In this document: positions 16,260 to 50,933 of the stretch, one piece after another | Numbering within the stretch: the stretch's first letter is position 1 | Layout: the number at the start of each line of letters is the position of its first letter | Source of the DNA: Candidatus Krumholzibacteriia bacterium | GTDB taxonomy: Bacteria > Krumholzibacteriota > Krumholzibacteriia > WVZY01 > JAKEHA01 | NCBI GenBank assembly: GCA_029865265.1 | Contig: JAOUHG010000002.1 | Location: 98,357 to 162,356 of the forward strand | Length of the DNA: 64,000 nt | Direction: 5' to 3' | The notes under the pieces: generated by a model | What the model was told of the DNA's origin: nothing | Databases searched by the model: none | What the model saw: only the letters and a program-made list of their open reading frames with translations | Program-made: the position numbers and the translations under genes

Positions 16260-17408
16260 CTACTTCAGATTGTGCAGAACGCTGCGGGCGATCACGAGGC
16301 GCTGGATCTCACTGGTGCCCTCGTAGATCTCCGTGATGCGCGCGTCGCGCATGTAGCGTTCCACGGGAAAGTCCTCCAGGTATCCGGCGCCGCCGTGGAT
16401 CTGCACGGCTTCGCGCGCGGCCTGGTTGGCGATCTGGGACGCGAACAGTTTGGCCATGGCCGCTTCCTTGCCGTGCGGCTGCTTCTCGTCCTTGAGGCGG
16501 GCGGCATTGTAGACCAGCAGGCGTGCCGCCTCGATGTGCATCGCCATGTCCGCGATCTTCCACTGCATCGCCTGGAACTTGCCGATCTGCTGACCGAAGG
16601 CCTCGCGCTCTTCGGCGTACTTCACCGACGCGTCGAGACACGCCTGGGCGATACCGACGGCCTGCGCCGCAATACCGATGCGTCCACCGTCCAGCGTGTG
16701 CATGGCGATCTTGAACCCGCCCCCCAGGTCGCCCAGCATGTTGGCGGCGGGCACACGCAGATCCTCGAACACCAGCTGGGTGGTGCTGGAGGCGCGCAGT
16801 CCCAGCTTGTCTTCCTTCTTCCCCACCGAGAACCCCTTGGAGGCGGCTTCGATGACGAAGGCGGAGATACCGCGCGTCTTGTGGGACGGGTCGGTGCGCA
16901 CCATGGCCAGCACCACATCCGCTTCCAGACCAGTGGTGATGAAATTCTTGGTTCCGTTGAGGACGAATTCATTGCCGTCGCGCACCGCGCTGGTCACCAG
17001 CGAAGCGGCATCGCTGCCCGACCCCGGTTCGCTCAGCGCGTACGCGCCGAGAAATTCTCCACTGGCGAGTCTGGGCAGGTAGCGCTTCTTGAGGTCTTCC
17101 GAGGCCCAGTGGACGATGGGCGCGGTCACCAGCGAGCTCTGCACCGACATGGTCACGCCGGTGGACGCGCACGCCCGGTTGACCTCCTCCAACGCCAGCA
17201 CCAGGGCGAAGTTGCCGGCCGCACTGCCGCCGTACACCTCCGGCACCAGCATGCCGAGAAACCCCATGCGGCCCAGTTCCTTGACGATTTCGCGCGGAAA
17301 TCTGGCCTCTCGGTTATGCTTGTCCGCGGCGGGGGCGATGACGGTGTCGGCGAACTCGCGCGCCGTCTGCTGAATCAGGCGCTGCTCTTCGGTCAGCGTA
17401 TACTGCAC
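16260..17408 (-). CDS. Acyl-CoA dehydrogenase (short/medium chain type)
   Basis: MQYTLTEEQRLIQQTAREFA..., ACAD N/M/C domains, YAL..SEPGSGSDA, catalytic base region ...TEIYEGTSEIQRLVIAR. Confidence 0.85.
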   Translation of the reverse strand: MQYTLTEEQRLIQQTAREFADTVIAPAADKHNREARFPREIVKELGRMGFLGMLVPEVYGGSAAGNFALVLALEEVNRACASTGVTMSVQSSLVTAPIVHWASEDLKKRYLPRLASGEFLGAYALSEPGSGSDAASLVTSAVRDGNEFVLNGTKNFITTGLEADVVLAMVRTDPSHKTRGISAFVIEAASKGFSVGKKEDKLGLRASSTTQLVFEDLRVPAANMLGDLGGGFKIAMHTLDGGRIGIAAQAVGIAQACLDASVKYAEEREAFGQQIGKFQAMQWKIADMAMHIEAARLLVYNAARLKDEKQPHGKEAAMAKLFASQIANQAAREAVQIHGGAGYLEDFPVERYMRDARITEIYEGTSEIQRLVIARSVLHNLK

Positions 17409-17561
17409 GATCGCCTCTTCTTCTGAAGGGTCTGCGGGGACGCCGCCGGGGATCCCGGCGGCTTGATATTTCCGTGTATTACGGGGAGCATGCGTCGGAT
17501 TCGACGTCGGCCTGAATCGAACCTACCCCAGCCCGCAACTCGGTGTCAACGCCCTTTTGGA

Positions 17562-17597
17562 CGCGAAAACGCCCGCATCCACAAGGGGTTGCGGGCG
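17562..17597 (-). terminator. Rho-independent terminator after giant gene 1
   Basis: On the minus strand: CGCCCGCA...TGCGGGCG 8-bp stem followed by TTTTCGCG. Lies ~55 nt past the stop at 17653. Confidence 0.5.
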
Positions 17598-17652
17598 ATT
17601 CCGGACTCCCGGATGGGAACGTCTTCCTGCGGCGCGAGGGTCACCCCGCCTT

Positions 17653-18230
17653 CTATTTGACCAGCAGCATCTTGCGCGTGTCGGTGAAACCACCCGCCAC
17701 CATGCGGTAGAAGTAGACGCCGGAACTGACCGGCGCACCCGCGTCGTTGCGCCCATCCCAACGTGACTGGTAGCGGCCCGCGGCCTTGTGCTCGTTGACC
17801 AGCGTGCGCACCCGCGCACCCCGCACGTCGTAGATCACCAGACTCACCGCGTTGCGGATGCCGCCCGGCACCCAGTAGTCGATGCTCGTCACGGGGTTGA
17901 ACGGGTTGGGGTGGTTCTGGCCCAGCTTCGCGATCGTCACCGGTACCAGCACCGCCAGCGTCTCGTTGACCACACCGCCCTCTCCCTCCAGCCGGTAGAC
18001 GTAGCGCGAGCCCATCTCCACGCCCCGGTCCACCACCCGCACCTCACCGTCCATGGACAGGCCCACCGCGCTCGCCACCCGCCGGTACGGGCCAGGCGCA
18101 TCGTCCTTCAGCTCCGCCCGGCTCACGTTGAACAACCCGCCGCTCGCGCTCAGCGGAACCGTCCACACCAGTTCCATGCCCCCGCCCAGCGCCGCGTAGC
18201 GGAACGAGGCACCACCCACCGGGGTGGGAA
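17653..18230 (-). repeat. Copy 1 of a ~580-nt near-identical 3' gene segment shared by the three giant genes
   Basis: Encoded peptide PTPVGGASFRYAALGGGMELVWTVPLSASGGLFNVSRAELKD...VNETLAVLVPVTIAKLGQN.PNPFNPVT...YDVRGARVRTLV is almost invariant in all three proteins. The spurious small ORFs in the track over these regions are also near-identical, which shows nucleotide-level identity. Confidence 0.6.
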
Positions 18231-21200
18231 CCACGAAGCCGTGGGCCCCGTTGTTGTGCGCGTTGGCGTGGAAGCGCGGCCACGGCGCGGTGGCCGGGTT
18301 CCAGCTACCGGAGAAATCCCACACGTAGAGGCTCTTGTCCCAGCCCGCGGCGACGAGATCAATGTCGCCATCCTGATCCACGTCGTTGAGTTCGGGTACG
18401 CCGCGCATCGCGTCGTCGGTCTTGAGCGGGAAGCCGGCGATCAACTGGCCGCTCACGTTCCACGCGTACAGGTACTGGGTCTCGCTGCCGATCACGATGT
18501 CGGGATTCCCGTCCCCGTCGACGTCGGCGATGACCGGCGACGACTCGGTGTAGGTGGTGGTGGTGTACTGCCTGGGCCACCCCGCCAGCACGACACCATT
18601 GCTCTGCGTGCCGTAGATGTTGCCACTGCCGCGCGCCACGAAGATCTCCAGCTTGCCGTCGCCGGTGACATTGCCGATCGCGGGCGACGAGGCGAAGAAG
18701 GGGTTCCAGGGGGCATTGCTGAAGTACTGCGACATCTGCAGCGTCGCATCATGGTTGATCACGAACAGGTTACCGGCCGCCGTGTTGACCACAATTTCGA
18801 GGTCGCCGTTGTTGTCAACGTCACCAATCGCCGGACTTCCCGCCACGTCGGAAGCAAGCGCGTACGGCCACCCCGGGCTCACGGAACCGTCTTCGTTGAA
18901 TACGTAGAGCTGGTCGCCCTGCGAACCCACGATCAGCTCTTCCATGTTGTCGCCATCGATGTCCGCCATGGCTGGCGTGGAATAGTTGAATGTGCAATTG
19001 GGCATGCGGAAGAACACGCCCTGCGTGAGCGGATTGAAGTCGCCGTCGATGAATTCGCTGCCGTCGGCATTCCAGGCGTAGATCACACCCTTCTCGTCCA
19101 CCGCGATCACTTCCAGCAGATTGTCCCCGTCGAGATCGCCCGCCGCCACCCCGGCGCGGACGAAGTTCTCCGCGCTCCGGGGCCAGCCGGGCAGCAGGGC
19201 CCCCTGATGGTTGAACACGTACACCTGCTTGAGGTCGCGCGAGGCTGCGATGACCTCCAGGCCGGGCGCCGCGTCCAGGCGCGCCAGCGCCGCGTGTGCC
19301 ACAAACGATCCCCCGACCGGGGACAGCACGCCCCAGGTCTGGGCGTCGCCGTCTCCGTTGATCACTTCACTCCCGTCGCTGTTGAAGGCGTAAACCTTGT
19401 CGGCGCACACCACGATTTCGAGATCGCCGTCGCCGTCGATATCGCCCACCACCGGCGAGGAACTGGTTTCGGAGCCCAGCGGAAGGGGGAACCCGGAGAC
19501 CTGCTGCGGGTTCGTGCTGCCCGAGGCCACGGCCGACGGCGCGCTCTCGTTGCCGGAGGTATCGATGGTGGTGGCCCTGAAGTAGTACAGGGAATTGGAC
19601 GTCAGTCCCCGGTCGAGAAACACGGTGTGCGACACCGGGTCGACCGTGGACTTCACCCACGGCCCTACCGGCGTCGTGGACCGATAGACGTGGTAGGTTT
19701 CGGCATCACCGCTCACACTCGCCGACCAGAAGACCTGCAGACGGTCCGGCCCCAGACTGGGGTCGATGACCAGCCCCACAGGGGCAACCGGCGGACGCAA
19801 CTCGACGATGTCCTGGTACGAGCGCCCGTAGGTGTCGACGATCTCGACCAGCAGGCGGTGCTCGCTGGCGACACTGGTCTCGATCATCTCGAACCCGGCG
19901 GTGTTCTCCGCCTCGGCCATGGGCGCCACGGCCGCATAGCTGTCGTTAGCGCCGATCAGCGTGAAACCGGCGTCCAGATCGGTGATGGTCGCGGACCCGC
20001 CCGGAAAGGCACCGGTGCCGAAGTTCTTGACCTTGTAGAACAGGTGGAACTGCTCGCCGGCATCGACAATGCCGTCGCCGTTGCCGTTGGCCACGTCATC
20101 GATGCGCAACGTCACCTGGAACAGCCCGGGCTGGTGAACTTCCTTCTTGAATGTGTCACGCCACGCCTCGCCGCCGTCGTTCTTGATGACCAGCGTGAAG
20201 GGCACCGGGTAGGCGTCCGGGTATGCGTCGTCGAAGGTGACGCGCACGCCGCCGCCCGCAACCACCGTTGCCCCGCTGGCGATGACACCCGCCGCGGCCG
20301 TGCTGTCGTCCAGCACGACACCCGGGTCGCTGCTGCGCAGGGTAACGGTGACGTCACCGGTGGACACCGGGCCGGTGTTCTTGAGGGACAGCGCCAGGTC
20401 GACGGTTTCTCCACCCTCGATGACACCGTTGCCGTTACCGGCGGTGCCGCCCGTGTTGTCGTCGTCTACCGTCATGCCCGCAATCTGCACGTATGCTGCC
20501 GCGGCCGTCACGGTGATGGTGCCGTCGTAGCGCCGCTGATTGTGACCGGTAACCACGACGTCGATAGCGCCGGGAGACCGGGCGCGGAACGGCAGCGTGG
20601 CCTGTCCGCTCATGTCCGTGGTGGCCACCGCGTAGTCGTCGCCGCCTTTGGTCAGGCAGACGGTGGCACCCTCCACCGGATTGCCACCACTCATCACCGT
20701 GACCAGGATGTTCTGCTTGCCGGCGGACACGCTGGCGGCGTGGGTCACATCCGTCGTCGCGGGACGGTGCGTCCACATGGGCAGCTCGGGGTCGGCGAGG
20801 AGCGTGTAGATGTAGTGCGTCCACAGGTCGACGTTGTCACCGAGCAGGGCCAGCGGTGTGCGCAGCGCGCGCGAGCGGGCGAAGGTCTCGCCGATGTTCG
20901 TAACCGCCGAATCAAACGCCAGTTTGTAGTACTCGTTCATGTACGCCGACGAGGCGTTCGGGAAGGCGCTCTCGTTGGCGCCCACCACCGACACCGCGCC
21001 CCCGTTGGGATTGCGCAGGAAGTGCTCCGCCAGGCAGTAGTACGTGTACGATGCCCCGGTGCAGTTCAGAAAGTAGAGGCACGATAGACGGTTTCCGTTG
21101 ATGAGCGCGTCCGCATCGGAGTTCACGATGCTGGCGTCGGACACCGACATGTTGAAGCGATAGCCGTGCCCGATATGCACCACGTGGTTGAACCCGGTAT

Positions 21201-22611
21201 TGAGCGAGTCCAGAACCGCCGCCCGGTTCTCGTCCACCGAGCCCGGGAAGTACTCCTGCGTCTCGTACATGCGCACGACATCGAGTCCCGGGGCGGTCAG
21301 ATGGTTGTTGTAGATGGTCTCGGTGAGATCGGCACCGTTGACGGTGATCGCCTGGGGTGGCGACCAGTTCAGCGGGAAAAGCACCTCGCCCAGCAGGAGC
21401 ACGCGATGGCCGAACGAGAGGTCGGCCGGAGTCTCGTAGGCGATGACCTTGCCGGTCATCATGGCCACTTCCGCCACCGACGAGGTCGGCAAGCGGCCCA
21501 CGTACACCTCGGCGTAGAGGTCGGCTCCGTCTATCGGCGTGCCCTCCCCGAAAATGGCGTCGCCGTCCGCGTTCCACGAACCATCCAGGCAACCGAAGTA
21601 CATGTCCACCGGCAGGAAACGCCCGCCGTCGTAGAAGCCGCTCCACGCCAGGCGCGGCGCGATCTCGCCGGTGTCTCCGCCCAGCAGCAGATAGGTGATC
21701 CCCCACTTTGCATACGCGTCCTTGACGAAGTTGCGGATGGTCTCCTGCGGGTCCGAGCCGTTGCGATAGTTGGCCTCGATCCACTCCGTGGTGCGCACCA
21801 CCGTCGGGACACCCTTGCCCGTCTTGAAGTCCGCCAGCGCCTGGTAGGCGGCCGCCAGCGAATCGGGGGTTACGATTACGTAATCGACCGCGCTGCCCTC
21901 CAGCGAGGGAAAGGTCGAGGGGGCGAAGCCACCGTCCGGCGCGGGCACGTCGACGGCACCAAAGCTGTAACCCGCCGCGTCGGCGCTGTTGATCACGAGC
22001 CGCGAAAGTTCTCCCTGGATGCGCTGCATGGCACGCGGACGGCGCCGCACCATGTGGACGGGCGCCGGTTGCGCGGATGGCGTGGTCTCGATTTCGAGCG
22101 TGACGGCCGGGTAGGCAACCAGATCCTCTCCGGACAACGACAGCGGATACACCGCGAAACTGGCGATGGTGTAACCATGCAGGGTTCCCACACCAAGCAG
22201 ACGCGCGCGCTCGGCGGGAAACGCCCCGCCTGACGCCAGCGACACCAGCGCGGTCGATTGCCCCGCGACGCCGTCTTCGGTGCGCATCGCATCCGCGAGC
22301 ACCGGGCTCACGCGGGTGGCGATGACGGTGGTGCCGCGTGCATCTGCGGCGAACGACGCCAGCTCGTGCCCCTGGGGCAACAGCACGCTCACGATGCGGT
22401 ACGGCAGCGCCGGGCGCCCCTCGTCCGCGAGGGTGGAATAGCCGTCGGCGCGCACCGAGACCGCGTGCCCCGCGGCGGTACCGCGCACGTCCACGTCGGC
22501 GGGGTCGAGCACCAGTTGGTAGGAGAGGGTCGTAGCCTGCGCAGAAAGCACGCCGGCTGCGAGCAGGAGTCCGGTGGCCAGAACGGGAATTGCAACTCGG
22601 AATCGTTTCAT
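17653..22611 (-). CDS. Giant secreted protein 1 (~1652 aa): peptidase C25 (gingipain-like) domain + FN3 + FG-GAP/VCBS beta-propeller repeats + conserved pre-tail module + T9SS type-A sorting domain
   Basis: ATG at 22611 gives MKRFRVAIPVLATGLLLAAGVLSAQA (signal peptide), with a GGAGGTGA SD. C25 entry block DYVIVTPDSLAAAYQALADFKTGKGVPTVVRTTEWI. His/Cys dyad context HVVHIGHG ... YFLNCTGAS. Repeated DxDxDGxxExxxG FG-GAP blades. Ends ...KLGQNHPNPFNPVTSIDYW...IYDVRGARVRTLV...SGVYFYRMVAGGF..RKMLLVK (Por_Secre_tail). Confidence 0.8.
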   Translation of the reverse strand: MKRFRVAIPVLATGLLLAAGVLSAQATTLSYQLVLDPADVDVRGTAAGHAVSVRADGYSTLADEGRPALPYRIVSVLLPQGHELASFAADARGTTVIATRVSPVLADAMRTEDGVAGQSTALVSLASGGAFPAERARLLGVGTLHGYTIASFAVYPLSLSGEDLVAYPAVTLEIETTPSAQPAPVHMVRRRPRAMQRIQGELSRLVINSADAAGYSFGAVDVPAPDGGFAPSTFPSLEGSAVDYVIVTPDSLAAAYQALADFKTGKGVPTVVRTTEWIEANYRNGSDPQETIRNFVKDAYAKWGITYLLLGGDTGEIAPRLAWSGFYDGGRFLPVDMYFGCLDGSWNADGDAIFGEGTPIDGADLYAEVYVGRLPTSSVAEVAMMTGKVIAYETPADLSFGHRVLLLGEVLFPLNWSPPQAITVNGADLTETIYNNHLTAPGLDVVRMYETQEYFPGSVDENRAAVLDSLNTGFNHVVHIGHGYRFNMSVSDASIVNSDADALINGNRLSCLYFLNCTGASYTYYCLAEHFLRNPNGGAVSVVGANESAFPNASSAYMNEYYKLAFDSAVTNIGETFARSRALRTPLALLGDNVDLWTHYIYTLLADPELPMWTHRPATTDVTHAASVSAGKQNILVTVMSGGNPVEGATVCLTKGGDDYAVATTDMSGQATLPFRARSPGAIDVVVTGHNQRRYDGTITVTAAAAYVQIAGMTVDDDNTGGTAGNGNGVIEGGETVDLALSLKNTGPVSTGDVTVTLRSSDPGVVLDDSTAAAGVIASGATVVAGGGVRVTFDDAYPDAYPVPFTLVIKNDGGEAWRDTFKKEVHQPGLFQVTLRIDDVANGNGDGIVDAGEQFHLFYKVKNFGTGAFPGGSATITDLDAGFTLIGANDSYAAVAPMAEAENTAGFEMIETSVASEHRLLVEIVDTYGRSYQDIVELRPPVAPVGLVIDPSLGPDRLQVFWSASVSGDAETYHVYRSTTPVGPWVKSTVDPVSHTVFLDRGLTSNSLYYFRATTIDTSGNESAPSAVASGSTNPQQVSGFPLPLGSETSSSPVVGDIDGDGDLEIVVCADKVYAFNSDGSEVINGDGDAQTWGVLSPVGGSFVAHAALARLDAAPGLEVIAASRDLKQVYVFNHQGALLPGWPRSAENFVRAGVAAGDLDGDNLLEVIAVDEKGVIYAWNADGSEFIDGDFNPLTQGVFFRMPNCTFNYSTPAMADIDGDNMEELIVGSQGDQLYVFNEDGSVSPGWPYALASDVAGSPAIGDVDNNGDLEIVVNTAAGNLFVINHDATLQMSQYFSNAPWNPFFASSPAIGNVTGDGKLEIFVARGSGNIYGTQSNGVVLAGWPRQYTTTTYTESSPVIADVDGDGNPDIVIGSETQYLYAWNVSGQLIAGFPLKTDDAMRGVPELNDVDQDGDIDLVAAGWDKSLYVWDFSGSWNPATAPWPRFHANAHNNGAHGFVVPTPVGGASFRYAALGGGMELVWTVPLSASGGLFNVSRAELKDDAPGPYRRVASAVGLSMDGEVRVVDRGVEMGSRYVYRLEGEGGVVNETLAVLVPVTIAKLGQNHPNPFNPVTSIDYWVPGGIRNAVSLVIYDVRGARVRTLVNEHKAAGRYQSRWDGRNDAGAPVSSGVYFYRMVAGGFTDTRKMLLVK

Positions 22612-22655
22612 GAGACCGTCACCTCCGCGTCGGGTCGCGGTTGGGAATACGAACG

Positions 22656-23233
22656 TTATTTGAGGAGAACCATTCTGCGCGCATCCTGGAAGGAGCCCGC
22701 GGACATGCGGTAGAAATAAACTCCGGAACCGACCGGCGCACCCGCGTCGTTGCGCCCGTCCCACTGCGCCGCGTAACGGCCCGCGGCCTTCTCCCCGTCG
22801 ACCAGCGTGCGCACCCGCGCACCCCGGACGTCGTAGATCACCAGACTCACCGCATTGCGGATGCCGCCCGGAACCCAGTACTCGATTGTTGTCACCGGGT
22901 TGAACGGGTTGGGATAGTTCTGGCCCAGCTTCGCGATCGTCACCGGTACCAGCACCGCCAGCGTCTCGTTGACCACACCGCCCTCGCCCTCCAGCCGGTA
23001 GACGTAGCGCGAGCCCATCTCCACGCCCCGGTCCACCACCCGCACCTCACCGTCCATGGACAGGCCCACCGCGCTCGCCACCCGCCGGTACGGGCCAGGC
23101 ACATCGTCCTTCAGTTCCGCCCGGCTCACGTTGAACAACCCGCCGCTCGCGCTCAGGGGAACCGTCCACACCAGTTCCATGCCCCCGCCCAGCGCCGCGT
23201 AGCGGAACGAGGCGCCACCCACCGGAGTGGGCA
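22656..23233 (-). repeat. Copy 2 of the ~580-nt conserved 3' segment
   Basis: As for copy 1. Identity ends at the stop codon and the downstream flank diverges. Confidence 0.6.
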
Positions 23234-26200
23234 GGGTGAAACCCGTGCGCCCATTGTTGTGCACGTTGGCGTGGAACCGCGGCCAGGGGGCCGCATTGTC
23301 GTCCCAGCTACCGCTGAAGTCCCACACGTAGACATTCTTGTCCCAGCCCGCCGCAACCAGGTCGGTGTCTCCGTCGAGATCGACGTCGGCAAGCTGGGGC
23401 ACACCGCGCATGGAATCCTGGGTCTTGAGCGGGAACCCGTCGAGAACCACACCGTTGCGGTCCCACCCCCAGATGCTCTGCTCCTCGCTGCCGATCACCA
23501 CGTCCAGCAGGCCGTCGCCGTCCACGTCGGCAATGACCGGCGAGGATTCGGTATAGGTAAGCGTGGAGTAGTTCACCGGAAAGCCGGGGCGATCGGTGCC
23601 GGTGAAGCTGAAGCAGTAAAGCTTGCCGCTCGCAGCCGGCACGAAGGTCTCGAGCTTGCCGTCGCCATCCACGTCGGCCAGCGCTGGCGAGGGGGCAAAG
23701 AAGAGCCCGTTGGCAGTAAAGCGCGACCACAGCTCGGTGCCGTTGTTGCGGATGGCACGAATGTTTCCATTGCGGACATTGATGACGATCTCCAGGGTAC
23801 CGTTGCCGTCGACGTCACCCACCGCGGGACTCCCGGAAATGTCATCGGCGAGCGCCAATGGAAACCCGGGCAGGTTGTTGCCATACAGATCGAGCACGTG
23901 CAACTCATTGCCCTGGGTGCCGACGATGATTTCATCCCGGCTATCTGAGTTGATGTCGGCCAGCGCCGGCGTGGAATACTGGAAGGTGCAACCGGTGAGG
24001 CGTTTGAACACGCCCTGGGTTACAGGATTGGCATCACCGTCCAAGTACTCCGATCCGTCGGCGCGCCACACGTAAACGACGCCGAGTTCGTCGATGGCCA
24101 CCACTTCCCGGGGCAGTCCATCGCCGTCGACGTCACCCACCGCCGCACCCGCGCGGATGAAGTTCTCCACCGTCCGCGGCCAGCCGGCCAGCACCTCGCC
24201 GGTATGGCGAAACACATACACCTGCTTGGTCTCGCGCGAAGATGCAACGATCTCCAGCCCCGGCAGTCCATCGAGCTGGGCCAGCGCCACGTGCCCCACG
24301 AAGTTGTCGCCCTGGTCGGACAACACGCCCCATGTCACCGGACTGTTATCGCCATCCACCACTTCGTCCCCGTCCCCGTGAAACGCATAGACGCGGTTGT
24401 CGCCGACCACGATTTCCGGCAATCCGTCGCCATCGATGTCCCCCACCGCCGGAGACGACGTGGTCTCCGCGGCCATCCCGATCGGGAACCCGATCACCTG
24501 TGACGGGTTGGTGCTCCCGGAGAACGCCGCGCTTTGCGCGCTCTCGTTTCCGGATGCATCGATGGCCGTCGCCTTGAAGTAGTACTTGGTGGTTGAGCTC
24601 AGCCCCGTGTTGAGGAAGAACGTGTGCGCAACCGGGTCCACGTTGCTCTGCGCGAACGGCCCCAGTGCGGATGTCGACCGATACAGGTTGTAACGCACCG
24701 CGTCCAGGCTCGTGCTGGCCGTCCACGATACCTGCAACCGATCCGGCCCCAACCCGGGGTCGACGACCAGCGCCGATGGCGGCAGCGGCGCGCGCAGCTC
24801 GACGGTGTCGGCATAGGCACGGCCGTAGGTGTCCGTCACCAGGATGCGCAGGCGGTGTTCGCTGGCGACACTCGGCTCGATCAACGTCAGTCCGCCCACA
24901 TTCTCGGCTTCCGCCTGCGGCGCAATGGCGCCAAAGGAATCCGTGCCGTCGATGATTGTGAAGCCTGCATCGAGATCGCTGATGGTCACCGATCCGCCGG
25001 GATACGTGCCGGTCCCGAAATTCTTGGCCCGGTAGTACAGGTTGAACTGCTCCCCTGCCTCAACCACGCCGTTGCCGTTGCCGGAGGCGCTGTCGTCGAT
25101 GCGCAACCGCACCAGCGCAAGGCTGCCCAGGTGGACTTCCTTCTTGAACTCATCGCGCCACGTCTCGACGCCGTTGACGCGGACCACGACGACGAAGGGC
25201 GCCGCGTACTCGTCCGGCAGCGCGCTGTTGAAAGTGACGCGCACGCCACCGGTGGCGGTGGCCGTGGCCCCCGCGGCGAGCGTCACCAGGCTGGCAGTGC
25301 TGTCATTGATGGTAACGCCCGCGTCGTTGCTGCGCAGCCGGACCGTGAGCGTCCCGGTGGTGCTGGAGGTGCCGGTGTTCTTGAAGGCGAGTTGCAGGTC
25401 GACGCGCTCGCCAGCCTCGATGACACCGTTTCCGTTTCCGCTGGTACCGCTGAGGTTGTCGTCGTCGATGACCATCGAGGCCAGCGTCACGTAGGGCCCG
25501 GTTCCGGTCACCGTGATGGCGCCATCGTAGCGCTTGTAGTTGCGGCCGGTGGCAACCACCTTGATGGATCCGGCGCTCTCGGCGCGGAAGGAGAGCGTCA
25601 CCTGGCCGGACACGTCCGTGGTCCCCACTTCGTAGTCATCGCCGTCCTTGGACAAGCACACGACCGCGCCCTCCACGGGCGTAGCGTTGCTGGTCACGGT
25701 GACGGTGACCAGGCTGGTCCCCTTGGGGACACTGGCCGGGAAGCTGGCCGTGAGCGGCGCGACCGCCCGCGTCCACAGGGGCATCTCGGGCTCCGCGAGG
25801 TTGGTGTAGACGAAGTGCGTCCAGCGATCGGATCCGTCGCTGGCCAGCGCGAAACCGGTTCGCGGTTCGCGCGAGCGCGCAAACAGCTCGCCCTGATGGA
25901 CGACGTTCTGCATCAGCAGCAGCCGGTAGAACTCGCCCTGGTACGAGGAAGCCGTGGTCGGGAACGCGCTCTCGTTGGACCCCACCACCGACACGGCGCC
26001 GCCGTTGGGGTTGCGCAGCAGGTGCTCGGCGAGGCTCTCGTAGGTGTACGCGCACGCGGTACAGTTCAGCAGGTTGAAGTTCGACAGGCGTGTGCCGTTG
26101 GTGAAGGCGTCGGCATCCGCGTTCACAATGCTCGCGTCGCCCACCGACATGTTGAAACGAAACCCGTGGCCGATGTGTATGACGTGGTTGTAGCCGGCGT

Positions 26201-27587
26201 TGATCGAGTCCACGGACACCTGCCGGGTCTCCGGCAGGACACCCGGGTACGCCGGGTGGTTCTCGTACAGACGCGTCACGGCGAGCGCTGGATCGGTGAA
26301 GTACGACAGGCGCAGAAACTCGGTGATGCTGGCGCCGTCGAGCGAAATCGGGTCGCCGGGGTGATAGTTCGAGGGGAAGAGCACCTCGGCCAGCATCAGG
26401 CTCTTGGCGGCGTAGGACGTCTGCGAGGGCTTCTCGTACTCCATCACCTTGCCGATCATCACCGCGGCCTCCGCGTTGGAGCGCGCGGGCAACCGTCCGG
26501 TGTAGACCTCCGCGTAGAGGTCGGCGTTGTCCTGGCCGAACTCGCCGAAGATCGCGTCGTGGTCGGCGTTCCAGTCGCCGTCCAGGCAGCCGAAGTACAT
26601 GTCGACCGGCAACATGCGGCCGCCGTCGTAGAAGACGGAAAATGCGGTGCGCACCGGAACCTGATCCGAGTCGCCTGCCAGCAGGAGATAGCTGATCCCC
26701 CACTTGGCGTAGGCGTCGATGGCGAAATTCCGCACCGTCTCGGCCATGTCGGCGCCGTTGAGGTAGTTGGCCGCGATCCACTCCGTGGTGCGCACCACCG
26801 TCGGCACACCCTTCTCCGTCTTCCAGTCGGCCAGGGTCTGGAAGGTGGCGGCGAGTGAGTCGTTGGTAACGATCACGTAGTCCACTGCACTTCCCTCCAA
26901 CGACGGGAAGATGGACGGCAGGAAGCCGCCGGTCGGTTCGGGCACCACCTCACCCGCGCTGGCGTACGACGACACCTGCCCGGCGTTGAGAACCATGGCG
27001 CGCAGCCGTTCGCGTACCGACTCGTCGAGCGCGTCGCGACGGCGTTCGCGTGTTACCGGCCGATCCTCGGCCGCCCGCGTGTGCACGGTGAAGGCAACTT
27101 CGTCCACCCCGAGCAATGTGTTGTCGACGACCTCAAACGGGTAGATGGCAATACTCGCCACCGCGTACCCGTGCAACCAGCCCGAGCCCAGGAAGCGCCC
27201 GCGCGCCTCACCGGACGCGGGGAGAACCGCAGCCGGCGCATCCGCCTCGAGACCCTGGGACGTGGTGTGCGCACCGGCCACGACGGGCGAAACTCCCGAA
27301 CGGACGACACGCGTCGTGCCGGAGCGGAACGAAACCGACGCCACCGCCTCGCCGGGCGGCAGCAACACGTTGACGATCCGATAGGGCAACTCGGGATAGC
27401 CTGGCTCGCGCGACACCTGCCACCCATCGGCGGTCACGGCGACGCGGTCCCCCCCGGGGGCGGAGGTGACGGACACGTCCCCGGGTACGGGAACGCGAAA
27501 GGAGAGGTCCGACGCCACGGCGACGTGCGCGAGCATGGCGACGGCAAGCATGGTAGCGAGCGAGACACGGGCGGAAAGGCGGTTCAT
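22656..27587 (-). CDS. Giant secreted protein 2 (~1643 aa), paralog with the same C25 + FN3 + FG-GAP + T9SS-tail architecture
   Basis: ATG giving MNRLSARVSLATMLAVAMLAHVAVA with GGAGG 9 nt upstream (the track M at 27596 is a non-ATG start). C25 blocks DYVIVTNDSLAATFQTLADWKTEKGVPTVVRTTEWI, HVIHIGHG, LLNCTAC. C-terminal 230 aa near-identical to genes 1 and 3. Confidence 0.8.
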   Translation of the reverse strand: MNRLSARVSLATMLAVAMLAHVAVASDLSFRVPVPGDVSVTSAPGGDRVAVTADGWQVSREPGYPELPYRIVNVLLPPGEAVASVSFRSGTTRVVRSGVSPVVAGAHTTSQGLEADAPAAVLPASGEARGRFLGSGWLHGYAVASIAIYPFEVVDNTLLGVDEVAFTVHTRAAEDRPVTRERRRDALDESVRERLRAMVLNAGQVSSYASAGEVVPEPTGGFLPSIFPSLEGSAVDYVIVTNDSLAATFQTLADWKTEKGVPTVVRTTEWIAANYLNGADMAETVRNFAIDAYAKWGISYLLLAGDSDQVPVRTAFSVFYDGGRMLPVDMYFGCLDGDWNADHDAIFGEFGQDNADLYAEVYTGRLPARSNAEAAVMIGKVMEYEKPSQTSYAAKSLMLAEVLFPSNYHPGDPISLDGASITEFLRLSYFTDPALAVTRLYENHPAYPGVLPETRQVSVDSINAGYNHVIHIGHGFRFNMSVGDASIVNADADAFTNGTRLSNFNLLNCTACAYTYESLAEHLLRNPNGGAVSVVGSNESAFPTTASSYQGEFYRLLLMQNVVHQGELFARSREPRTGFALASDGSDRWTHFVYTNLAEPEMPLWTRAVAPLTASFPASVPKGTSLVTVTVTSNATPVEGAVVCLSKDGDDYEVGTTDVSGQVTLSFRAESAGSIKVVATGRNYKRYDGAITVTGTGPYVTLASMVIDDDNLSGTSGNGNGVIEAGERVDLQLAFKNTGTSSTTGTLTVRLRSNDAGVTINDSTASLVTLAAGATATATGGVRVTFNSALPDEYAAPFVVVVRVNGVETWRDEFKKEVHLGSLALVRLRIDDSASGNGNGVVEAGEQFNLYYRAKNFGTGTYPGGSVTISDLDAGFTIIDGTDSFGAIAPQAEAENVGGLTLIEPSVASEHRLRILVTDTYGRAYADTVELRAPLPPSALVVDPGLGPDRLQVSWTASTSLDAVRYNLYRSTSALGPFAQSNVDPVAHTFFLNTGLSSTTKYYFKATAIDASGNESAQSAAFSGSTNPSQVIGFPIGMAAETTSSPAVGDIDGDGLPEIVVGDNRVYAFHGDGDEVVDGDNSPVTWGVLSDQGDNFVGHVALAQLDGLPGLEIVASSRETKQVYVFRHTGEVLAGWPRTVENFIRAGAAVGDVDGDGLPREVVAIDELGVVYVWRADGSEYLDGDANPVTQGVFKRLTGCTFQYSTPALADINSDSRDEIIVGTQGNELHVLDLYGNNLPGFPLALADDISGSPAVGDVDGNGTLEIVINVRNGNIRAIRNNGTELWSRFTANGLFFAPSPALADVDGDGKLETFVPAASGKLYCFSFTGTDRPGFPVNYSTLTYTESSPVIADVDGDGLLDVVIGSEEQSIWGWDRNGVVLDGFPLKTQDSMRGVPQLADVDLDGDTDLVAAGWDKNVYVWDFSGSWDDNAAPWPRFHANVHNNGRTGFTLPTPVGGASFRYAALGGGMELVWTVPLSASGGLFNVSRAELKDDVPGPYRRVASAVGLSMDGEVRVVDRGVEMGSRYVYRLEGEGGVVNETLAVLVPVTIAKLGQNYPNPFNPVTTIEYWVPGGIRNAVSLVIYDVRGARVRTLVDGEKAAGRYAAQWDGRNDAGAPVGSGVYFYRMSAGSFQDARRMVLLK

Positions 27588-27842
27588 CAGAGACAACCTC
27601 CGGTACGCGCGGTCAGTCGTTCGCCGGTAGGAGCGACGGCGATCTTCGGACCATCTGCTGGTCTTGCCGCGCGTCCGTGGCGCCGCGGCTATGTCAAATC
27701 ACGGAGAAATGGAAAACCGTTGTTGGTAGCAGATCGCGTTTCGCTTGCGCTCCCGCGGTTGGTTGTTGAACCGCCCAATGATGAGTACATCATTATATCG
27801 CAACGGGATCGGCCCGTCAATGGCAGAGTCTGCGCGACGACA

Positions 27843-27893
27843 GCCATCCGGGATCTGCTGGTGTGTCGAGGAGGTATGCTCGTCCCGGATGGC
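27843..27893 (-). terminator. GC hairpin (11-bp stem GCCATCCGGGA/TCCCGGATGGC, 29-nt loop) ~30 nt downstream of the giant gene 3 stop; possible terminator
   Basis: Inverted repeat read from the sequence in the 326-nt gap between giant genes 3 and 2. No U-tract. Confidence 0.3.
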
Positions 27894-27922
27894 CTGCCGC
27901 GCAGAAATTCTTGCCCGTTTCT

Positions 27923-28500
27923 CTATTTCAGAAGGACCATCCTGCGGGTGTTCTCGAAACCACCCGCCACCATGCGGTAGAAGTAGACGCCGGAACTGAC
28001 GGGCGCACCCGCGTCGTTGCGCCCGTCCCACTGCGCCGCGTAACGGCCCGCGGCTTTCTCCCTGTCGACCAGCGTGCGCACCCGCGCACCCCGGACGTCG
28101 TAGATCACCAGGCTCACCCGGTTGCGGCTTCCGCCCGGAACCCAGTACTCGATTGTTGTCACCGGGTTGAACGGGTTGGGATAGTTCTGGCCCAGCTTCG
28201 CGATCGTCACCGGTACCAGCACCGCCAGCGTCTCGTTGACCACACCGCCCTCTCCCTCCAGCCGGTAGACGTAGCGCGAGCCCATCTCCACACCCCGGTC
28301 CACCACCCGCACCTCACCGTCCATGGACAGACCCACCGCGCTCGCCACCCGCCGGTACGGGCCCGGCTCGCCGTCCTTCAGCTCCGCCCGGCTCACGTTG
28401 AACAACCCGCCGCTCGCGCTCAGCGGAACCGTCCACACCAGCTCCATGCCACCGCCCAGCGCCGCGTAGCGGAACGAGGCGCCACCCACCGGTGTGGGCA
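27923..28500 (-). repeat. Copy 3 of the ~580-nt conserved 3' segment
   Basis: As for copy 1. Confidence 0.6.
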
Positions 28501-31500
28501 GGGGCGTGGCAACGTTGCCGTCGTTGAACAGATTGGCGTGATAGCGCGCCCACGGCGCCTTGAGGGGATTGAACATCGACGGGAAATCCCACACGTAGAC
28601 ACTCTTGTCCCACCCGGCCGCCACCAGGTCGGTATCGCCATCCTTGTCGACGTCGGCGATGAGCGGCGTGGCGCGAACCGCATCCGACAACGCCAGCGGG
28701 AAGCCGGGCATGAGCTGCCCGGAAGCGTCCCACGCGTTCAGGTACTTGTTCTCGTCTCCCAGCAGCACGTCCAGTGAACCGTCGTTGTCGATGTCCGCGA
28801 TGACCGGAGACGATTCCGTGTACAACTGGGTGGCGTAGGCCACCGGCCAGCCCGGCAGGCTGCTGCCGTTCCAGCGGATGGCGTACAGGTTGCGGTTCTT
28901 GCTCGGCAGGACAACCTCCAGCCTGCCGTCACCATCGAGGTCCCCGAGCGCGGGCGAGGGACCGAACGCCAGCTGGTTCTGGAACCACGTATTCCACAGG
29001 ATGGTGCCGTCGTGGTGAAGCGCCCACACCAGGCCGCCCCATTCGCACACGACGATCTCCAGGTCTCCGTCGTTGTCGATGTCACCCACCGCCGGGCTAC
29101 CCGAAATGTCGGTGCTGAATCCCTTCGGCCACCCCGGCACCACCGAGCCGTCTGCGTTGAGCACGTACAGGGAGTCACCCTGCGTCCCCACCACGATTTC
29201 ATTGACGTTGTCGCCGTCGATATCCGCGATGGCCGGGCAGGTGTACTGATAGACGCATCCGCCGAAGGTGCGGAACACGCCGTTGGTTGCGGGGTTGTTG
29301 TCGCCATTGCGCCATTCGCTGCCATCTGGATTCCACACGTAGAGAACGCCCTTCTCGTCGAGCGCGATGACTTCCTTCTGGCCGTCGTTGTTGATATCGC
29401 CCGCCACCACCGCGGCGCGTATCGGATTCAACACGGTCTGCGGCCAGCCGGCGATCGGGTTGCCGGTGTAGCTGAAGACAATCACCTGTTTGGTGTCGCG
29501 CGACGCGGCCAGGATTTCCATTCCCGGTACCGCGTCCATGTCGGCCAGGCCGACGTGTGCCACGTAGTTGCTTCCCAGGGTGCTGAACAGACCCCACGTC
29601 TGCGCGTTGAGGTCAGCGTCGCGTACCTCCACCCCGTTATGATGCCAGGCGTAGAGCTTGTTGTTGCCCTGTATGATTTCGAAGTCGTTGTCGCCGTCGA
29701 TATCGCCCACCACCGGAGAACACACGGTTTCCACCGCCATGGCGATGGGCCAACCCTCCGCCTGCTTCGGATTCGTGCTGCCGCTGAACTCCGGGGAAGG
29801 CGCGCTCTCGTTACCCGAGGCATCGATGGTGGTCACGCGCATGTAATAGCGGGTGGTGGGCTGGAGCCCGCCGCTGAGGAATGTCGTATGGTGCACCGGG
29901 TCGGGCGTCATCACCGAGTACGGCCCGCCCGGGAACGGCGACGATAGCACCCGGTAACCGACGGCGTCAGCGGATGCGCTCGCGTCCCAGGAAATCTTGA
30001 GACGATCCGCGCCCAGGCTCGGATCGAACTTCAGCGTGAGCGGTGGTACGGGTGCGCGCAGCTCGAAGAGCTTGGTCCACACCTGTCCGTATGCGTCGGC
30101 TACTTCCAGCTTGAGCGTGTGGGGCACCGCGACACTGTTCTCCCGCAGGAGGAATCCGTTTGTGTTCTCCGCCTCGCCGATGCTGGGCAACTCCGGGTAC
30201 GTGTCCACGCTGTCGGTGAACACGAACGCACCGCCGAGGTCGGTCAGACGAGCGGTGAGCCCGTGGGCGGCCCCGGTGCCGAAGTTCTTCACGTCGTAGT
30301 AGAGACGGAAGTCCTCGCCCGCGTCGACCACGCCGTCTCCGTTGCCGCTCGCCGAATCGTCGACACGCAGCACCACGAACTCGAGCCGCGGTGTATGCAC
30401 CAGACGCGTAAAGCGATCCGTCCACAGCGGCACCCCGTTGTCGCGCACCTCGAGCGTGAACAGCACCGGCAGTTCGTCCGGCAGCGAGGGATCGATACGG
30501 ATACGGAACGGATCGGTGGCGGCGACCGTCCCGCCCGCCGGCACGATGCCCACGGCCGCCAGGCTGTCCTCCACCACGAAACCGACGTAGGAGGTGCGCA
30601 ACGCAAGGGTGACGTTCTGCGCGGCCGACAGTCCGGTATTCCTGACCGAGGCCGTGAGTTCGAGCACTTCTCCCGCCCCGATCACGCCATCACCGTTGCC
30701 GCTGGTGGTCGCGGTGGAGTCATCCCCCACCTCGCACCCGGCGAAGCTCACGTAAGCACCCGCGCCGGGGCTGACGGGAATGGCGCCCACGTGCGTGGCG
30801 CGGTTGGGTGCGCTGGCCACCACCGAGACGTTGCCGGCCGACTCGGCGGTCATGGTGAGCGTCACCGATCCGGCGCCGTCGGTGAGACCCACTTCGTAGT
30901 CGTCGTCGTCCTTGGAGAGACACACGCGCGCACCGGCCACGGGGCCGCCAGCGTCGGAGACGGTAACCGTGATGGGCGTGGTGCCCAGCCCCAACGCACC
31001 GGTGTAGTTCACGACAAGGGGCTGCACCGGCCTCGTCCACAGCGGCATCTCGGGGTCGGCCAGCATGCAGTAGATGTAGTGCGTCCACAGCTCGCCGTTG
31101 TCACCGGTCTGCGCGACGGGTGTGCGCGGTTCGCGGGAACGCACGAAAGTCTCGCCGATGTTGGTGACACCCTGGTTGAAGAGCAGGTCGTAGTAGTCGT
31201 TCATGTACGGCTGCGAGAGCAGCGGGTAGGCGCTCTCATTGGCCCCCACCACCGACACGGCGCCGCCGTTGGGATTCACCAGGAAGTGCTCGCCGAGACA
31301 GAAATAGGTGAAGGCAACGCCGGTACAATTGAGCAGATACAGGTTGGTGAAGCGGTTGGGATTCACCATCGCGTCCGCATCCGCATTCACGATATTCCCC
31401 GCACCCACCGACATGTTGAAGCGGAAGCCGTGACCGATATGGTTCACGTGGTCGTACCCACTCTCGATGGAGTCGATGGCCGAGACCGCCGTCTCCGGCA

Positions 31501-50679: not shown

Positions 50680-50933
50680 GGTTCTGGTCCGCCGAAGCGC
50701 GACAGTCTAGCGCCCGCCGGGAGCGGCTGGCAAGGGACGCGTGCTTGACGGTCTGCGACGTGCGCGGGCGGCGGGTGCGGCAACTGTGGACGGGAATGCT
50801 GGCGAGCGGGCGAACCCTGGTGCCATGGGACGGCCGCGACGACCGCGGCGTGGCGGTCCCATCGGGCGTGTACTTCCTGCGCGCCACGGCGGGCGCCGCG
50901 GCGGACGTGACCCGGGTGGTACGGGTGCGCTAG
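50673..50933 (+). pseudogene. Orphan remnant of a T9SS type-A C-terminal sorting domain (last ~60 codons of a lost cargo gene)
   Basis: The frame translates ...LTVCDVRGRRVRQLWTGMLASGRTLVPWDGRDDRGVAVPSGVYFLRATAGAAADVTRVVRVR*, matching the tail pattern (IYDVRGRxV...WDGRDxxG..V.SGVYFYR...). No upstream body or signal peptide. Wedged between the MFS start and the fabV stop. Confidence 0.4.

Follow-up and report, generated by a model that had tools for sequence, protein, structure and literature searches.

Probable gene conversion confined to the 3' ends of three tandem C25-peptidase genes with predicted type IX secretion tails in a Krumholzibacteria genome

Three tandem genes in the window, the 64,000-nt stretch of DNA from a Candidatus Krumholzibacteriia bacterium analysed here, encode C25-family peptidases with predicted type IX secretion (T9SS) tails, and their 3' ends very probably undergo concerted evolution by gene conversion. 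The bodies of the genes are old (dS ~1) and belong to three orthologue types that are shared with relatives; the tails are young (dS 0.06–0.13 in the part encoding a fibronectin type III (fn3)-like domain) and mosaic. The mechanism is not new: this is a well-supported, ordinary case of a known kind of gene conversion. An earlier note on this DNA had described near-identical ~580-nt 3' ends and proposed ongoing conversion or recombination; the observation proved to be real but overstated and was confirmed in part. Its reading as gene conversion is borne out by a roughly ten-fold drop in dS, an abrupt 5' edge, a mosaic of discrete patches, paralogues that are closer to each other in the tract than to their orthologues in a sister strain, and patches that switch paralogue type between the strains.

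Results

A tandem array of three putative secreted peptidases

The predicted product of gene A comprises a signal peptide, a Peptidase_C25 domain, Ig-like domains, an FG-GAP propeller, an fn3-like pre-tail domain and a T9SS type A C-terminal domain, and genes B and C have the same architecture (Table 1). PF01364 matched A, B and C with 190.7, 171.7 and 174.3 bits, respectively (Pfam cut-off 23); FG-GAP_3 and FlgD_ig were matched as well. In an alignment with RgpB (4ief_B), H211 and C244, which we take to be the catalytic residues, correspond to the His of a GHG and the Cys of an NC motif in gene A, and the same motifs are present in B and C (HIGHGFRF, LLNCT). Both the PF01364 score and the retained His-Cys dyad place the proteins in peptidase family C25, and all three are predicted to be giant, gingipain-like cysteine peptidases, with secretion deduced from their domains. 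The exact protein encoded by gene B has the accession MDH4035874.1 and the title 'C25 family cysteine peptidase [Candidatus Krumholzibacteria bacterium]'. A PorU identity was rejected, since the PorU-type sortase model NF033707 scored 76.3 bits, far below its cut-off of 420.

The GTG start codon of gene C is preceded by GGAGG, and its counterpart as called in the sister strain L029 is likewise 1652 residues long. Genes C and B are separated by 335 nt; B and A are probably co-transcribed, because only 41 nt lie between them.

Table 1 Features of the array (positions in the window)
Feature	Position	Strand	Remarks
Gene A	17653..22614	minus	1653 aa; body orthology type 2; ORF and translation
Gene B	22656..27587	minus	1643 aa; body orthology type 3; ORF and translation
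Gene C	27923..32881	minus	1652 aa from GTG at 32881; body orthology type 1
Core tract of probable conversion, copy A (fn3-like pre-tail)	17914..18228	minus	alignment, variable-site list, dS, AF2
Core tract of probable conversion, copy B (fn3-like pre-tail)	22917..23231	minus	offset +5003 from A
Core tract of probable conversion, copy C (fn3-like pre-tail)	28184..28498	minus	offset +10270 from A
Predicted T9SS type A / FlgD_ig C-terminal domain, copy A	17656..17913	minus	mosaic
Predicted C-terminal sorting domain, copy B	22659..22916	minus	alignment
Predicted C-terminal sorting domain, copy C	27926..28183	minus	alignment
Sigma-70-like promoter match (11/12)	27792..27820	minus	in the 335-nt C-B spacer

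Extent and mosaic structure of the repeat

The 3' ends of the three genes are direct repeats lying 5003 and 5267 nt apart, in agreement with the ~5-kb spacing given before, and align without gaps over 575–576 nt with 91.3% identity. The near-identity that had been ascribed to ~580 nt holds for a core of 315 nt, which contains 13 variable sites (pairwise 96.1–98.0% identity at the nucleotide and 98–99% at the amino acid level), but not for the part encoding the sorting tail, which is mosaic and 83.5–89.1% identical between pairs. Runs of perfect identity among the copies reach 114, 108 and 122 nt, with a 122-nt perfect match between B and C at 22864–22985. The 5' edge of the core is sharp and lies, at position 18228 of copy A, at a PTPV linker that marks a domain boundary. 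Upstream of it the gene bodies are 54–61% identical in amino acids and 62–67% in nucleotides, close to the ~50–60% stated in the earlier note.

From the 5' edge on, the repeat passes from a part in which all three copies are alike to one in which B equals C and A differs (17755–17913 in A coordinates), then to one in which A equals C and B differs (17686–17731), and finally to one in which all three differ (17653–17685). Identity does not last up to the stop codons, as had been claimed; it fades earlier, the final ~33 nt before the stop codons are diverged, and past the stop codons similarity between the copies is gone. The ~190 invariant residues, described as preceding the tail, turned out to be ~191 residues including it (a 103-residue pre-tail and a ~88-residue tail). 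The quoted module ELVWTVPLSASGG...YRLEGEGG was found in all three proteins.

Synonymous divergence

Between pairs of A, B and C, dS amounted to 0.89–1.01 in the bodies, 0.06–0.13 in the pre-tail domain and 0.31–0.39 in the C-terminal domain; synonymous divergence thus drops about ten-fold inside the tract. In its first 105 codons 5–10 of ~87 synonymous sites differ, compared to ~53–56% in the bodies, and the synonymous deficit in the core has a binomial P of 1e-17 to 1e-22. The identity is therefore at the nucleotide level, as proposed before: the pairwise nucleotide alignment of the 3' ends gave near-identity including synonymous sites, and the pattern that would have spoken against it, protein conservation with synonymous divergence, was not seen in the core. 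This loss of synonymous differences, together with a 5' edge that coincides abruptly with a domain boundary, is more than protein-level selection by itself can account for. GC-biased conversion is not claimed, because the difference in GC3 between tails (0.85–0.90) and bodies (0.85–0.86) is too small.

The pre-tail domain and the sorting tail

An AF2 model of pre-tail and tail (pLDDT 89.6) consists of two consecutive seven-strand sandwiches, the pre-tail domain being the one formed by residues 12–93, and the top Foldseek matches in the PDB are tandem fn3 pairs. A phmmer search with the pre-tail module found P0136 (E = 2e-27, 16 stretches), a protein in which Pfam recognises 18 fn3 domains. Pfam assigned no family to the pre-tail sequence of the window; its fn3 model (PF00041) did not match window positions 17920–18228 even at E = 10, and it matched distant pre-tail homologues with E = 7e-4 and 0.007, under the gathering cut-off. 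Fold and transitive homology both indicate fn3 membership; the direct Pfam gathering score is not reached. The module appears from model and homology to be a separately folded, divergent fn3 domain and not a new or tail-specific fold. Of the earlier suggestion of a distinct pre-tail domain, the separate folding stands, but the module also occurs elsewhere, including multi-fn3 proteins, and the idea of a new domain was dropped on the structural matches and the phmmer links. The same pair of fn3 and C-terminal domain makes up stand-alone, predicted secreted proteins of ~266 aa in Krumholzibacteria.

At the extreme C-terminus TIGR04183 scored 25.3–28.2 bits (gene A 25.3; cut-off 23), and PF13860 (FlgD_ig) covered the last ~85 residues with 39–41 bits (cut-off 27); the tails are predicted to be T9SS type A C-terminal sorting domains. 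As a control, two further C-terminal-domain sequences of the window were compared; they are only 44–51% identical to the array tails, which shows that this tail sequence is not required by the secretion system; the proteins that carry such domains elsewhere in the window lack the fn3 pre-tail.

Comparison with a sister strain

The L029 contig (1.04 Mb), assembled independently from a different sample, is colinear with the window at 97.8% identity over 23.2 kb and contains the same three genes in the same order with the same tail structure; C-terminal domain C is 100% identical to its L029 orthologue. In the pre-tail, A and B of the window are 98.1% identical in nucleotides, whereas A and B are each only 95.6% identical to their own counterparts in L029. 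Likewise, pS between the paralogues A and B in the tract (0.057) is below that between the strains in the bodies of A (0.088) and C (0.097).

Patches of the repeat differ in paralogue type between the window and L029 (A 17755–17766; B 17842–17858 in A coordinates; C 18094–18112), and of the 46 differences that separate the strains in tails A and B, 18 concern alleles that are both present in other paralogues. Because patches in the L029 tails switch paralogue type, conversion was still active around the split of the two strains; this comparison comprises two assembled strains and, via protein B alone, one further MAG, with the window tail haplotypes taken from assemblies. Some patches are private and have no donor inside the array (RVAS to REAG in L29_B/P0128; five private sites in L29_A), so that either not all tail change is conversion between the paralogues or donors lie outside the region seen. 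A diversity-generating retroelement was rejected as the origin of the clustered patch in L29_B, since its substitutions are not adenine-specific. Between the strains, pN/pS in the tails is low (0.13–0.19).

Orthologue types and homogenised tails in relatives

The three-gene array is also present in relatives. In the full-length relatives the bodies fall into three clear orthologue types, being 63–79% identical within a type and 50–61% between types; the three copies of L004, too distant and frameshifted, were left out of the typing. Orthologous pre-tails are only 40–67% identical in amino acids and are the least conserved part between orthologues. The window pre-tails share 40–57% of residues with those of L010, L015 and L014, compared to 63–68% for the bodies. 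Between orthologues dN is 0.31–0.46 in the pre-tail and 0.14–0.27 in the body, and strong constraint can therefore not explain the invariance of the pre-tail in the window. Immediately ahead of the tract, a stretch of ~63 residues in C is 85% identical to that of P0001, a protein of another organism, but 57% to A and B, and the stretch in A is 78% identical to P0008; despite these differing affinities the pre-tails of A, B and C are mutually 98–99% identical. The closest pre-tail outside belongs to P0001, a type-1 orthologue (76%); L010 and L015 are inconsistent as to the donor.

Tail homogenisation arose independently and at different times in related genomes, where it is weaker than in the window: copies 2 and 3 have homogenised tails in L010 (84% aa, dS 0.55) and L015 (78% aa), and in L004 the last ~700 nt of copies 2 and 3 are 84–95% identical in nucleotides, compared to 60–75% upstream. 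It is absent from copies 1 and 2 of L014 and copy 1 of L015 and is, therefore, episodic and not constant. The genes are ordered 1-3-2 in the window and 1-2-3 in relatives, and the type-3 copy is doubled in L012 and L011; the risk of deletion or amplification raised in the earlier note is thus matched by differences in copy number and gene order. A scan of species-representative genome contigs with protein A yielded only three distant loci, none a usable relative, and exact look-ups of protein A, P0127 and P0128 found no DNA record.

Assembly breakage at the repeat

The risk for assembly, also raised before, is real. Within the repeat, three contigs assembled from short reads of the same organism break off (L007 and L008 at window position 17715, L009 at 18021), as does the fragment from a fourth MAG, the contig of P0129, which ends within the B pre-tail. 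L009 is 99.9% identical to tail A and 88–89% to tails B and C. Protein B was deposited identically from two MAGs.

Discussion

In the mechanism we favour, three ancient tandem paralogues would undergo repeated short-tract, non-reciprocal homologous recombination, confined to the last ~540 nt, which encode the divergent fn3 domain and most of the presumed type IX C-terminal domain. The copies lie 5 kb from each other in direct orientation, and their perfect matches of 108–122 nt should suffice for RecA-type strand invasion; each conversion would re-create identity and so make the next one easier. The tract may halt at the domain boundary because extension of the heteroduplex is blocked by the divergence upstream (~35% in nucleotides), because chimeric propellers are counter-selected, or both. 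The same repeats could be the substrates for unequal crossing-over behind the changes in copy number and gene order.

The uniformly low dS of the core in all three pairs would also be expected if a single recent event had placed one tail cassette, by copying or import, in all three genes and only point mutation had followed. This is very unlikely: a mosaic with different identical pairs requires no fewer than three events that end at different points, the paralogue type of patches differs between strains that are 97.8% identical, and A and B are closer in the tract than the bodies of A or C are between the strains. That metagenome assembly exaggerated the similarity of the tails by partly collapsing or cross-polishing them is highly improbable, even though the repeat does break short-read assemblies; the independent L029 contig has the same genes, order and tail structure, copy-specific variants are kept in each tail, as seen with L009, an identical protein B came from two MAGs, and in related genomes the pattern recurs in other states of decay. 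We give next to no credence to the idea that the nucleotide identity is kept because the DNA or RNA itself has a role (as structured RNA, antisense gene or regulatory element), or by protein constraint alone. Both are effectively refuted, and nothing speaks for either beyond the trivial conservation of out-of-frame reading frames. Rfam gave no family at threshold in 17300–33300 and the 315-nt tract folds no better than shuffled sequences (z = 0.14), so that an RNA element was dropped; protein constraint cannot by itself erase synonymous differences and would act on the domain that is least constrained between orthologues.

Conversion could also be the mechanism while selection keeps the copies alike. 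The fn3 and C-terminal cassette would then serve as a lineage-specific 'address label', co-evolving with a common surface partner or with those T9SS components that recognise, shuttle or attach the proteins, and the three proteases would need the same version. The pre-tail is indeed the fastest-evolving part between genomes, yet it was homogenised repeatedly within genomes, the tract edge lies exactly at the domain boundary, and the pair also exists as stand-alone proteins. Against this, the other sorting-domain proteins of the window do without the fn3 pre-tail and have dissimilar tails, tails that differ among the three genes are tolerated in several relatives (L014, L015 copy 1), pN/pS in the tails gives no sign of adaptive change, and an edge at the domain boundary is equally expected from neutral conversion with purifying selection; we regard such selection as unlikely. 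A wider version, in which the cassette, identical in all members of the array, is a selected, lineage-specific 'handle' that both keeps the three proteases matched to a partner in secretion or attachment with which it co-evolves and provides a portable recombination site for duplicating, deleting and re-ordering the 5-kb bodies, would fit the order 1-3-2 versus 1-2-3 and the doubled type-3 copy, but is quite unlikely as well. If true, it would amount to a cassette-shuffling system for the surface-protease repertoire of an uncultivated phylum.

Gene conversion restricted to the cassette has parallels in known systems. The tuf gene pair is one case of bacterial concerted evolution. In others, such as rRNA operons, paralogues within a genome are closer than orthologues, and the process is driven by recombination, recurrent and long-lasting (PMC6053082, PMC8022953). 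In the classic cases whole genes are homogenised under strong dosage or functional constraint, whereas conversion in the array is limited to a ~540-nt 3' cassette of diverged 5-kb genes, and this cassette evolves fastest between genomes. The array is a clean natural case of domain-restricted concerted evolution, with old, functionally diverged bodies and a young, shared secretion cassette, that recurs across a lineage.

The genes rgpA, kgp and hagA of Porphyromonas gingivalis resemble the array as regards C25 cysteine peptidases with T9SS C-terminal domains and type IX secretion. Automated assemblies break at their gingipain/adhesin repeat, which both domain rearrangement and homologous recombination shuffle (PMC5266723). 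In this Bacteroidota pathogen the genes are dispersed and have haemagglutinin/cleaved-adhesin and DUF2436 domains in common, whereas in this uncultivated Krumholzibacteria lineage one fn3-like domain and the sorting domain itself are shared in a strictly tandem three-gene array; FG-GAP propellers in the array proteins stand opposite adhesin repeats in those of P. gingivalis. The parallel with the recombining gingipain/adhesin genes extends the pattern beyond the Bacteroidota. RgpB is a T9SS cargo with an IgSF domain ahead of its C-terminal domain, and in the modelled array proteins a beta-sandwich likewise directly precedes a beta-sandwich sorting domain; unlike that of RgpB, the array domain is related in sequence to fn3 repeats.

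Phylogenies based on the C-terminal portion of the array proteins will cluster by genome and not by orthologue. In MAG binning and annotation, Krumholzibacteria C25 arrays will appear fragmented or mis-joined at the tail repeats, and many database matches are contigs of 1–3 kb that end in the tail.

Architecture of the C25 peptidase array

Profile searches (Pfam and TIGR04183) revealed one common architecture for the three tandem genes A, B and C. A signal peptide is followed by Peptidase_C25 (172-191 bits, cut-off 23), by C25-type Ig and other Ig-like domains and by a large FG-GAP propeller; the C-terminus is a FlgD_ig/T9SS type A domain (PF13860, 39-41 bits; TIGR04183, 25-28 bits, cut-off 23), and ~103 residues between propeller and C-terminal domain had no Pfam match. 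In C, a mid-protein fn3 domain passes the Pfam cut-off; the match in B is sub-threshold. Alignment to gingipain RgpB places its catalytic residues His211 and Cys244 on the GHG and NC motifs of A, both of which are conserved in B and C. The array proteins did not qualify as PorU (76 bits, cut-off 420). Read from its GTG start, the product of gene C has 1652 aa, and an equal length was called in an independent assembly of a sister strain (L029). The deposited record of protein B, identical in sequence, is titled 'C25 family cysteine peptidase [Candidatus Krumholzibacteria bacterium]', and the genes around it bear the same organism name. The spacer between C and B (335 nt) contains a promoter-like match (11/12); that between B and A has 41 nt. 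Directly upstream of the array lies a gene for a 604-aa protein with an M10/M57-type metallopeptidase motif at its C-terminus; since this gene is also present in L029 and in L024, the locus is a secreted-protease cluster.

Coordinates of the array genes and associated features
Feature	Location	Strand	Remark
Gene A	window 17653-22614	-	ORF, tandem array member
Gene B	window 22656-27587	-	ORF, tandem array member
Gene C	window 27923-32881	-	ORF; start taken at GTG 32881, GGAGG before it
Array, window	17653-32881		order C-B-A
Array, L010	571-16028		
Array, L015	717-16012		
Array, L014	590-12483		
Type-3 pair, L012	1636-9309		tandem copies
Type-3 pair, L011	2-3891		tandem copies
Metallopeptidase-motif gene	window 33139-34953	-	604 aa
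Big_5/FG-GAP secreted protein	window 56370-58133	-	FlgD_ig tail
Orphan ORF	window 50673-50933	+	86 aa
Extra T9SS-tail gene	L010 16124-16402	-	convergent
Tail of B'	L029 14286-14934		REAG patch
~266-aa protein P0061	L005 6001-6801		

The 3' ends are nearly identical at the DNA level

The 3' ends of A, B and C form three direct repeats, spaced by 5003 and 5267 nt, which align without gaps over 575-576 nt with 91.3% identity and contain perfect runs of 108-122 nt. Column-by-column alignment placed a sharp 5' edge at A 18228, B 23231 and C 28498; upstream about every second base differs, and the 315 nt downstream vary at 13 sites. Past the stop codons of the three genes no alignable sequence was found. 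The repeat is a mosaic: over A coordinates 17914-18228 the three copies have 96.1-98.0% DNA identity and 98-99% protein identity, at 17755-17913 B equals C against A, at 17686-17731 A equals C against B, and the last ~33 nt differ in all three. The near-identity over ~580 nt claimed in the earlier note thus holds for the 315-nt core but was overstated for the sorting tail (83.5-89.1%), and its ~190 invariant residues plus tail shrink to ~191 residues with the tail already counted in. The body divergence was estimated correctly (54-61% protein identity).

Synonymous divergence (Nei-Gojobori) amounted to 0.89-1.01 in the gene bodies, about 1.3 in the 60 codons immediately upstream of the tract, 0.31-0.39 in the sorting domain and 0.06-0.13 in the pre-tail domain, confirming that the identity is at the nucleotide level. 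The pre-tail has 5-10 synonymous differences in ~87 sites versus a background of 0.53-0.56 (binomial P 1e-17 to 1e-22).

The paralogues are old and their tails are recurrently homogenised

A metagenome scan with end-of-propeller motifs returned 19 loci, several of which carry the same array directly upstream of acyl-CoA dehydrogenase/ETF genes, as in the window. By body identity (63-79% within, 50-61% between types) the genes fall into three orthologue types: type 1 (C of the window and the first copies of L010, L015 and L014), type 2 (A and the second copies of the same loci) and type 3 (B, the third copies of L010 and L015, L013 and the second copy of L012). Since these types are common to several genomes, the paralogues are much older than the genomes. 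Between orthologues the pre-tail is the least conserved part (40-67% aa identity; dN 0.31-0.46 versus 0.14-0.27 in the body). Inside one genome, by contrast, its copies have become alike to a varying extent: they share 98-99% in the window, 84% between copies 2 and 3 of L010 (dS 0.55) and 78% between those of L015, while copies 1 and 2 of L014 are not homogenised. In the distant, frameshift-ridden L004, copies 2 and 3 share 84-95% of their DNA over the last ~700 nt versus 60-75% upstream. Short database fragments lead to the same conclusion: in the ~63 residues that precede the tract, C shares 85% with P0001 and A 78% with P0008, and still the three pre-tails of the window are alike.

The sister strain, a 1.04-Mb contig from a different sample, matches the window colinearly along 23.2 kb, with 97.8% identity and eight single-base insertions; its array likewise runs C-B-A. 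In the pre-tail core, A and B of the window are 98.1% identical, while A with A' and B with B', their counterparts in L029, share 95.6%. Three patches switch paralogue type between the strains. At 17755-17766, five sites of A are specific to A in the window but resemble B/C in L029; at A coordinates 17842-17858, B resembles A in the window but C in L029; and at 18094-18112, C is private in the window but resembles A/B in L029. In the tails of A and B, 18 of the 46 between-strain differences involve alleles both present in other paralogues, and the A-B pS of the tract (0.057) is below the between-strain pS of the A (0.088) and C (0.097) bodies. Therefore, conversion was still occurring around the divergence of the two strains. 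Together, low tract dS, mosaic segments and patch switches bear out the gene conversion proposed in the earlier note in all essentials, and show that DNA-level homogenisation of the tails has recurred among old paralogues, through short tracts whose end points differ.

A patch of five clustered substitutions in the tail of B' (A coordinates 18000-18010) changes RVAS to REAG; none of the six tails compared is its donor. It recurs in a third MAG of the same population (P0128, residues 1503-1505) and is therefore real; its source may be an outside donor or a multi-nucleotide mutation. Besides, the body of B (window ~24000-26500) has ~4 differences to L029 in 2.5 kb versus ~2.2% elsewhere, and its pS of 0.032 versus 0.088 and 0.097 in A and C suggests recent exchange or a sweep between strains.

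Mechanism and alternatives

The homogenisation probably proceeds by RecA-type non-reciprocal recombination, with the direct repeats, spaced 5 kb, as substrates. The minimal processing segment of E. coli is shorter than the perfect runs of the repeat. The process would be self-reinforcing, because every conversion restores identity. Its arrest at the domain boundary would be due to sequence divergence upstream, which prevents the heteroduplex from extending, to selection against chimeric propellers, or to both.

A DNA or RNA element is not the reason for the identity, since the array region had no Rfam match and the tract folded no better than shuffles (z = 0.14). That homogeneity is additionally selected, for instance to match a co-evolving secretion partner, we consider unlikely. 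Elsewhere in the window, two further C-terminal-domain sequences share just 44-51% with the array tails; therefore, the secretion system does not require the array-tail sequence. One of them, used as internal control (44%), belongs to a secreted protein with Big_5 and FG-GAP repeats and without the fn3 pre-tail. The other (51%) is an orphan ORF between oppositely oriented genes, comprising the C-terminal two thirds of a FlgD_ig/T9SS sorting domain with no cargo upstream, possibly the remnant of a decayed cargo gene.

The closest analogue of the array is found in Porphyromonas gingivalis: the C25 peptidases and adhesins of the rgpA/kgp/hagA set have T9SS tails and common identical repeats, on which automated assembly fails and which recombination shuffles (PMC5266723). 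More broadly, the array is an instance of concerted evolution by gene conversion, a process documented for bacterial paralogues (PMC6053082, PMC8022953). Unlike the known cases, the array belongs to the Krumholzibacteria lineage and is strictly tandem, conversion is limited to the sorting domain and a single fn3 domain, and no other part evolves faster between genomes than the converted domain. The finding is real but of a known kind and of modest interest; its value lies mainly in a clean, recurrent, domain-restricted example of concerted evolution and in the caution it advises when these C25-peptidase genes are assembled or placed in trees.

Array order, copy number and assembly

The arrays of the window, L029, L010, L015 and L014 all adjoin the same acyl-CoA dehydrogenase gene, but their body types are ordered 1-3-2 in the window and L029 and 1-2-3 in the other three; therefore, two 5-kb genes were permuted, plausibly because genes were duplicated and deleted at the tail repeats. 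Copy number varies in the array family too: L012 and L011 have a tandem pair of type-3 genes, each member ~70% identical to the third copy of L015. Unequal crossing-over could use the same repeats, and both the differing orders and the doubled copies fit it. In L010 an extra T9SS-tail gene, absent from the window, lies between array and acyl-CoA dehydrogenase.

The predicted risk for assembly is borne out by short-read contigs of the same organism which end in the repeat (L007 and L008 at window 17715, L009 at 18021) and by the 2088-nt contig of P0129, which ends inside the pre-tail of B. Many top database matches are likewise 1-3-kb contigs that end in the tail. L009 matches tail A with 99.9% versus 88-89% for tails B and C, confirming the copy-specific variants.

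The pre-tail module is a divergent fn3 domain

An AlphaFold2 model of the last 195 residues (45-sequence alignment, mean pLDDT 89.6) showed two consecutive beta-sandwiches, residues ~12-93 and 105-193, with tandem fibronectin-III pairs (cytokine receptors, integrin beta4, fibronectin) as top Foldseek PDB matches. The window's own module had no Pfam match; distant homologues gave fn3 matches below threshold (E = 7e-4 and 0.007). A phmmer search of 1.84 billion representatives returned just 26 proteins at E <= 1e-3, the best with 16 matching stretches in a protein of 18 fn3 domains by Pfam. Module and tail also form ~266-aa secreted proteins in Krumholzibacteria MAGs. The module is therefore a separately folded, divergent fn3 domain, and the 'distinct pre-tail domain' of the earlier note stands as a folding unit. 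A new fold was rejected given the Foldseek pairs and the link to the 18-fn3 protein, as was restriction to the pre-tail position, since the module also occurs in that multi-fn3 protein. The ~266-aa proteins (P0061 and others among P0060-P0091) are built from a signal peptide, a short Gly-rich stretch, the fn3-like domain and the T9SS tail and are in effect the cassette alone.
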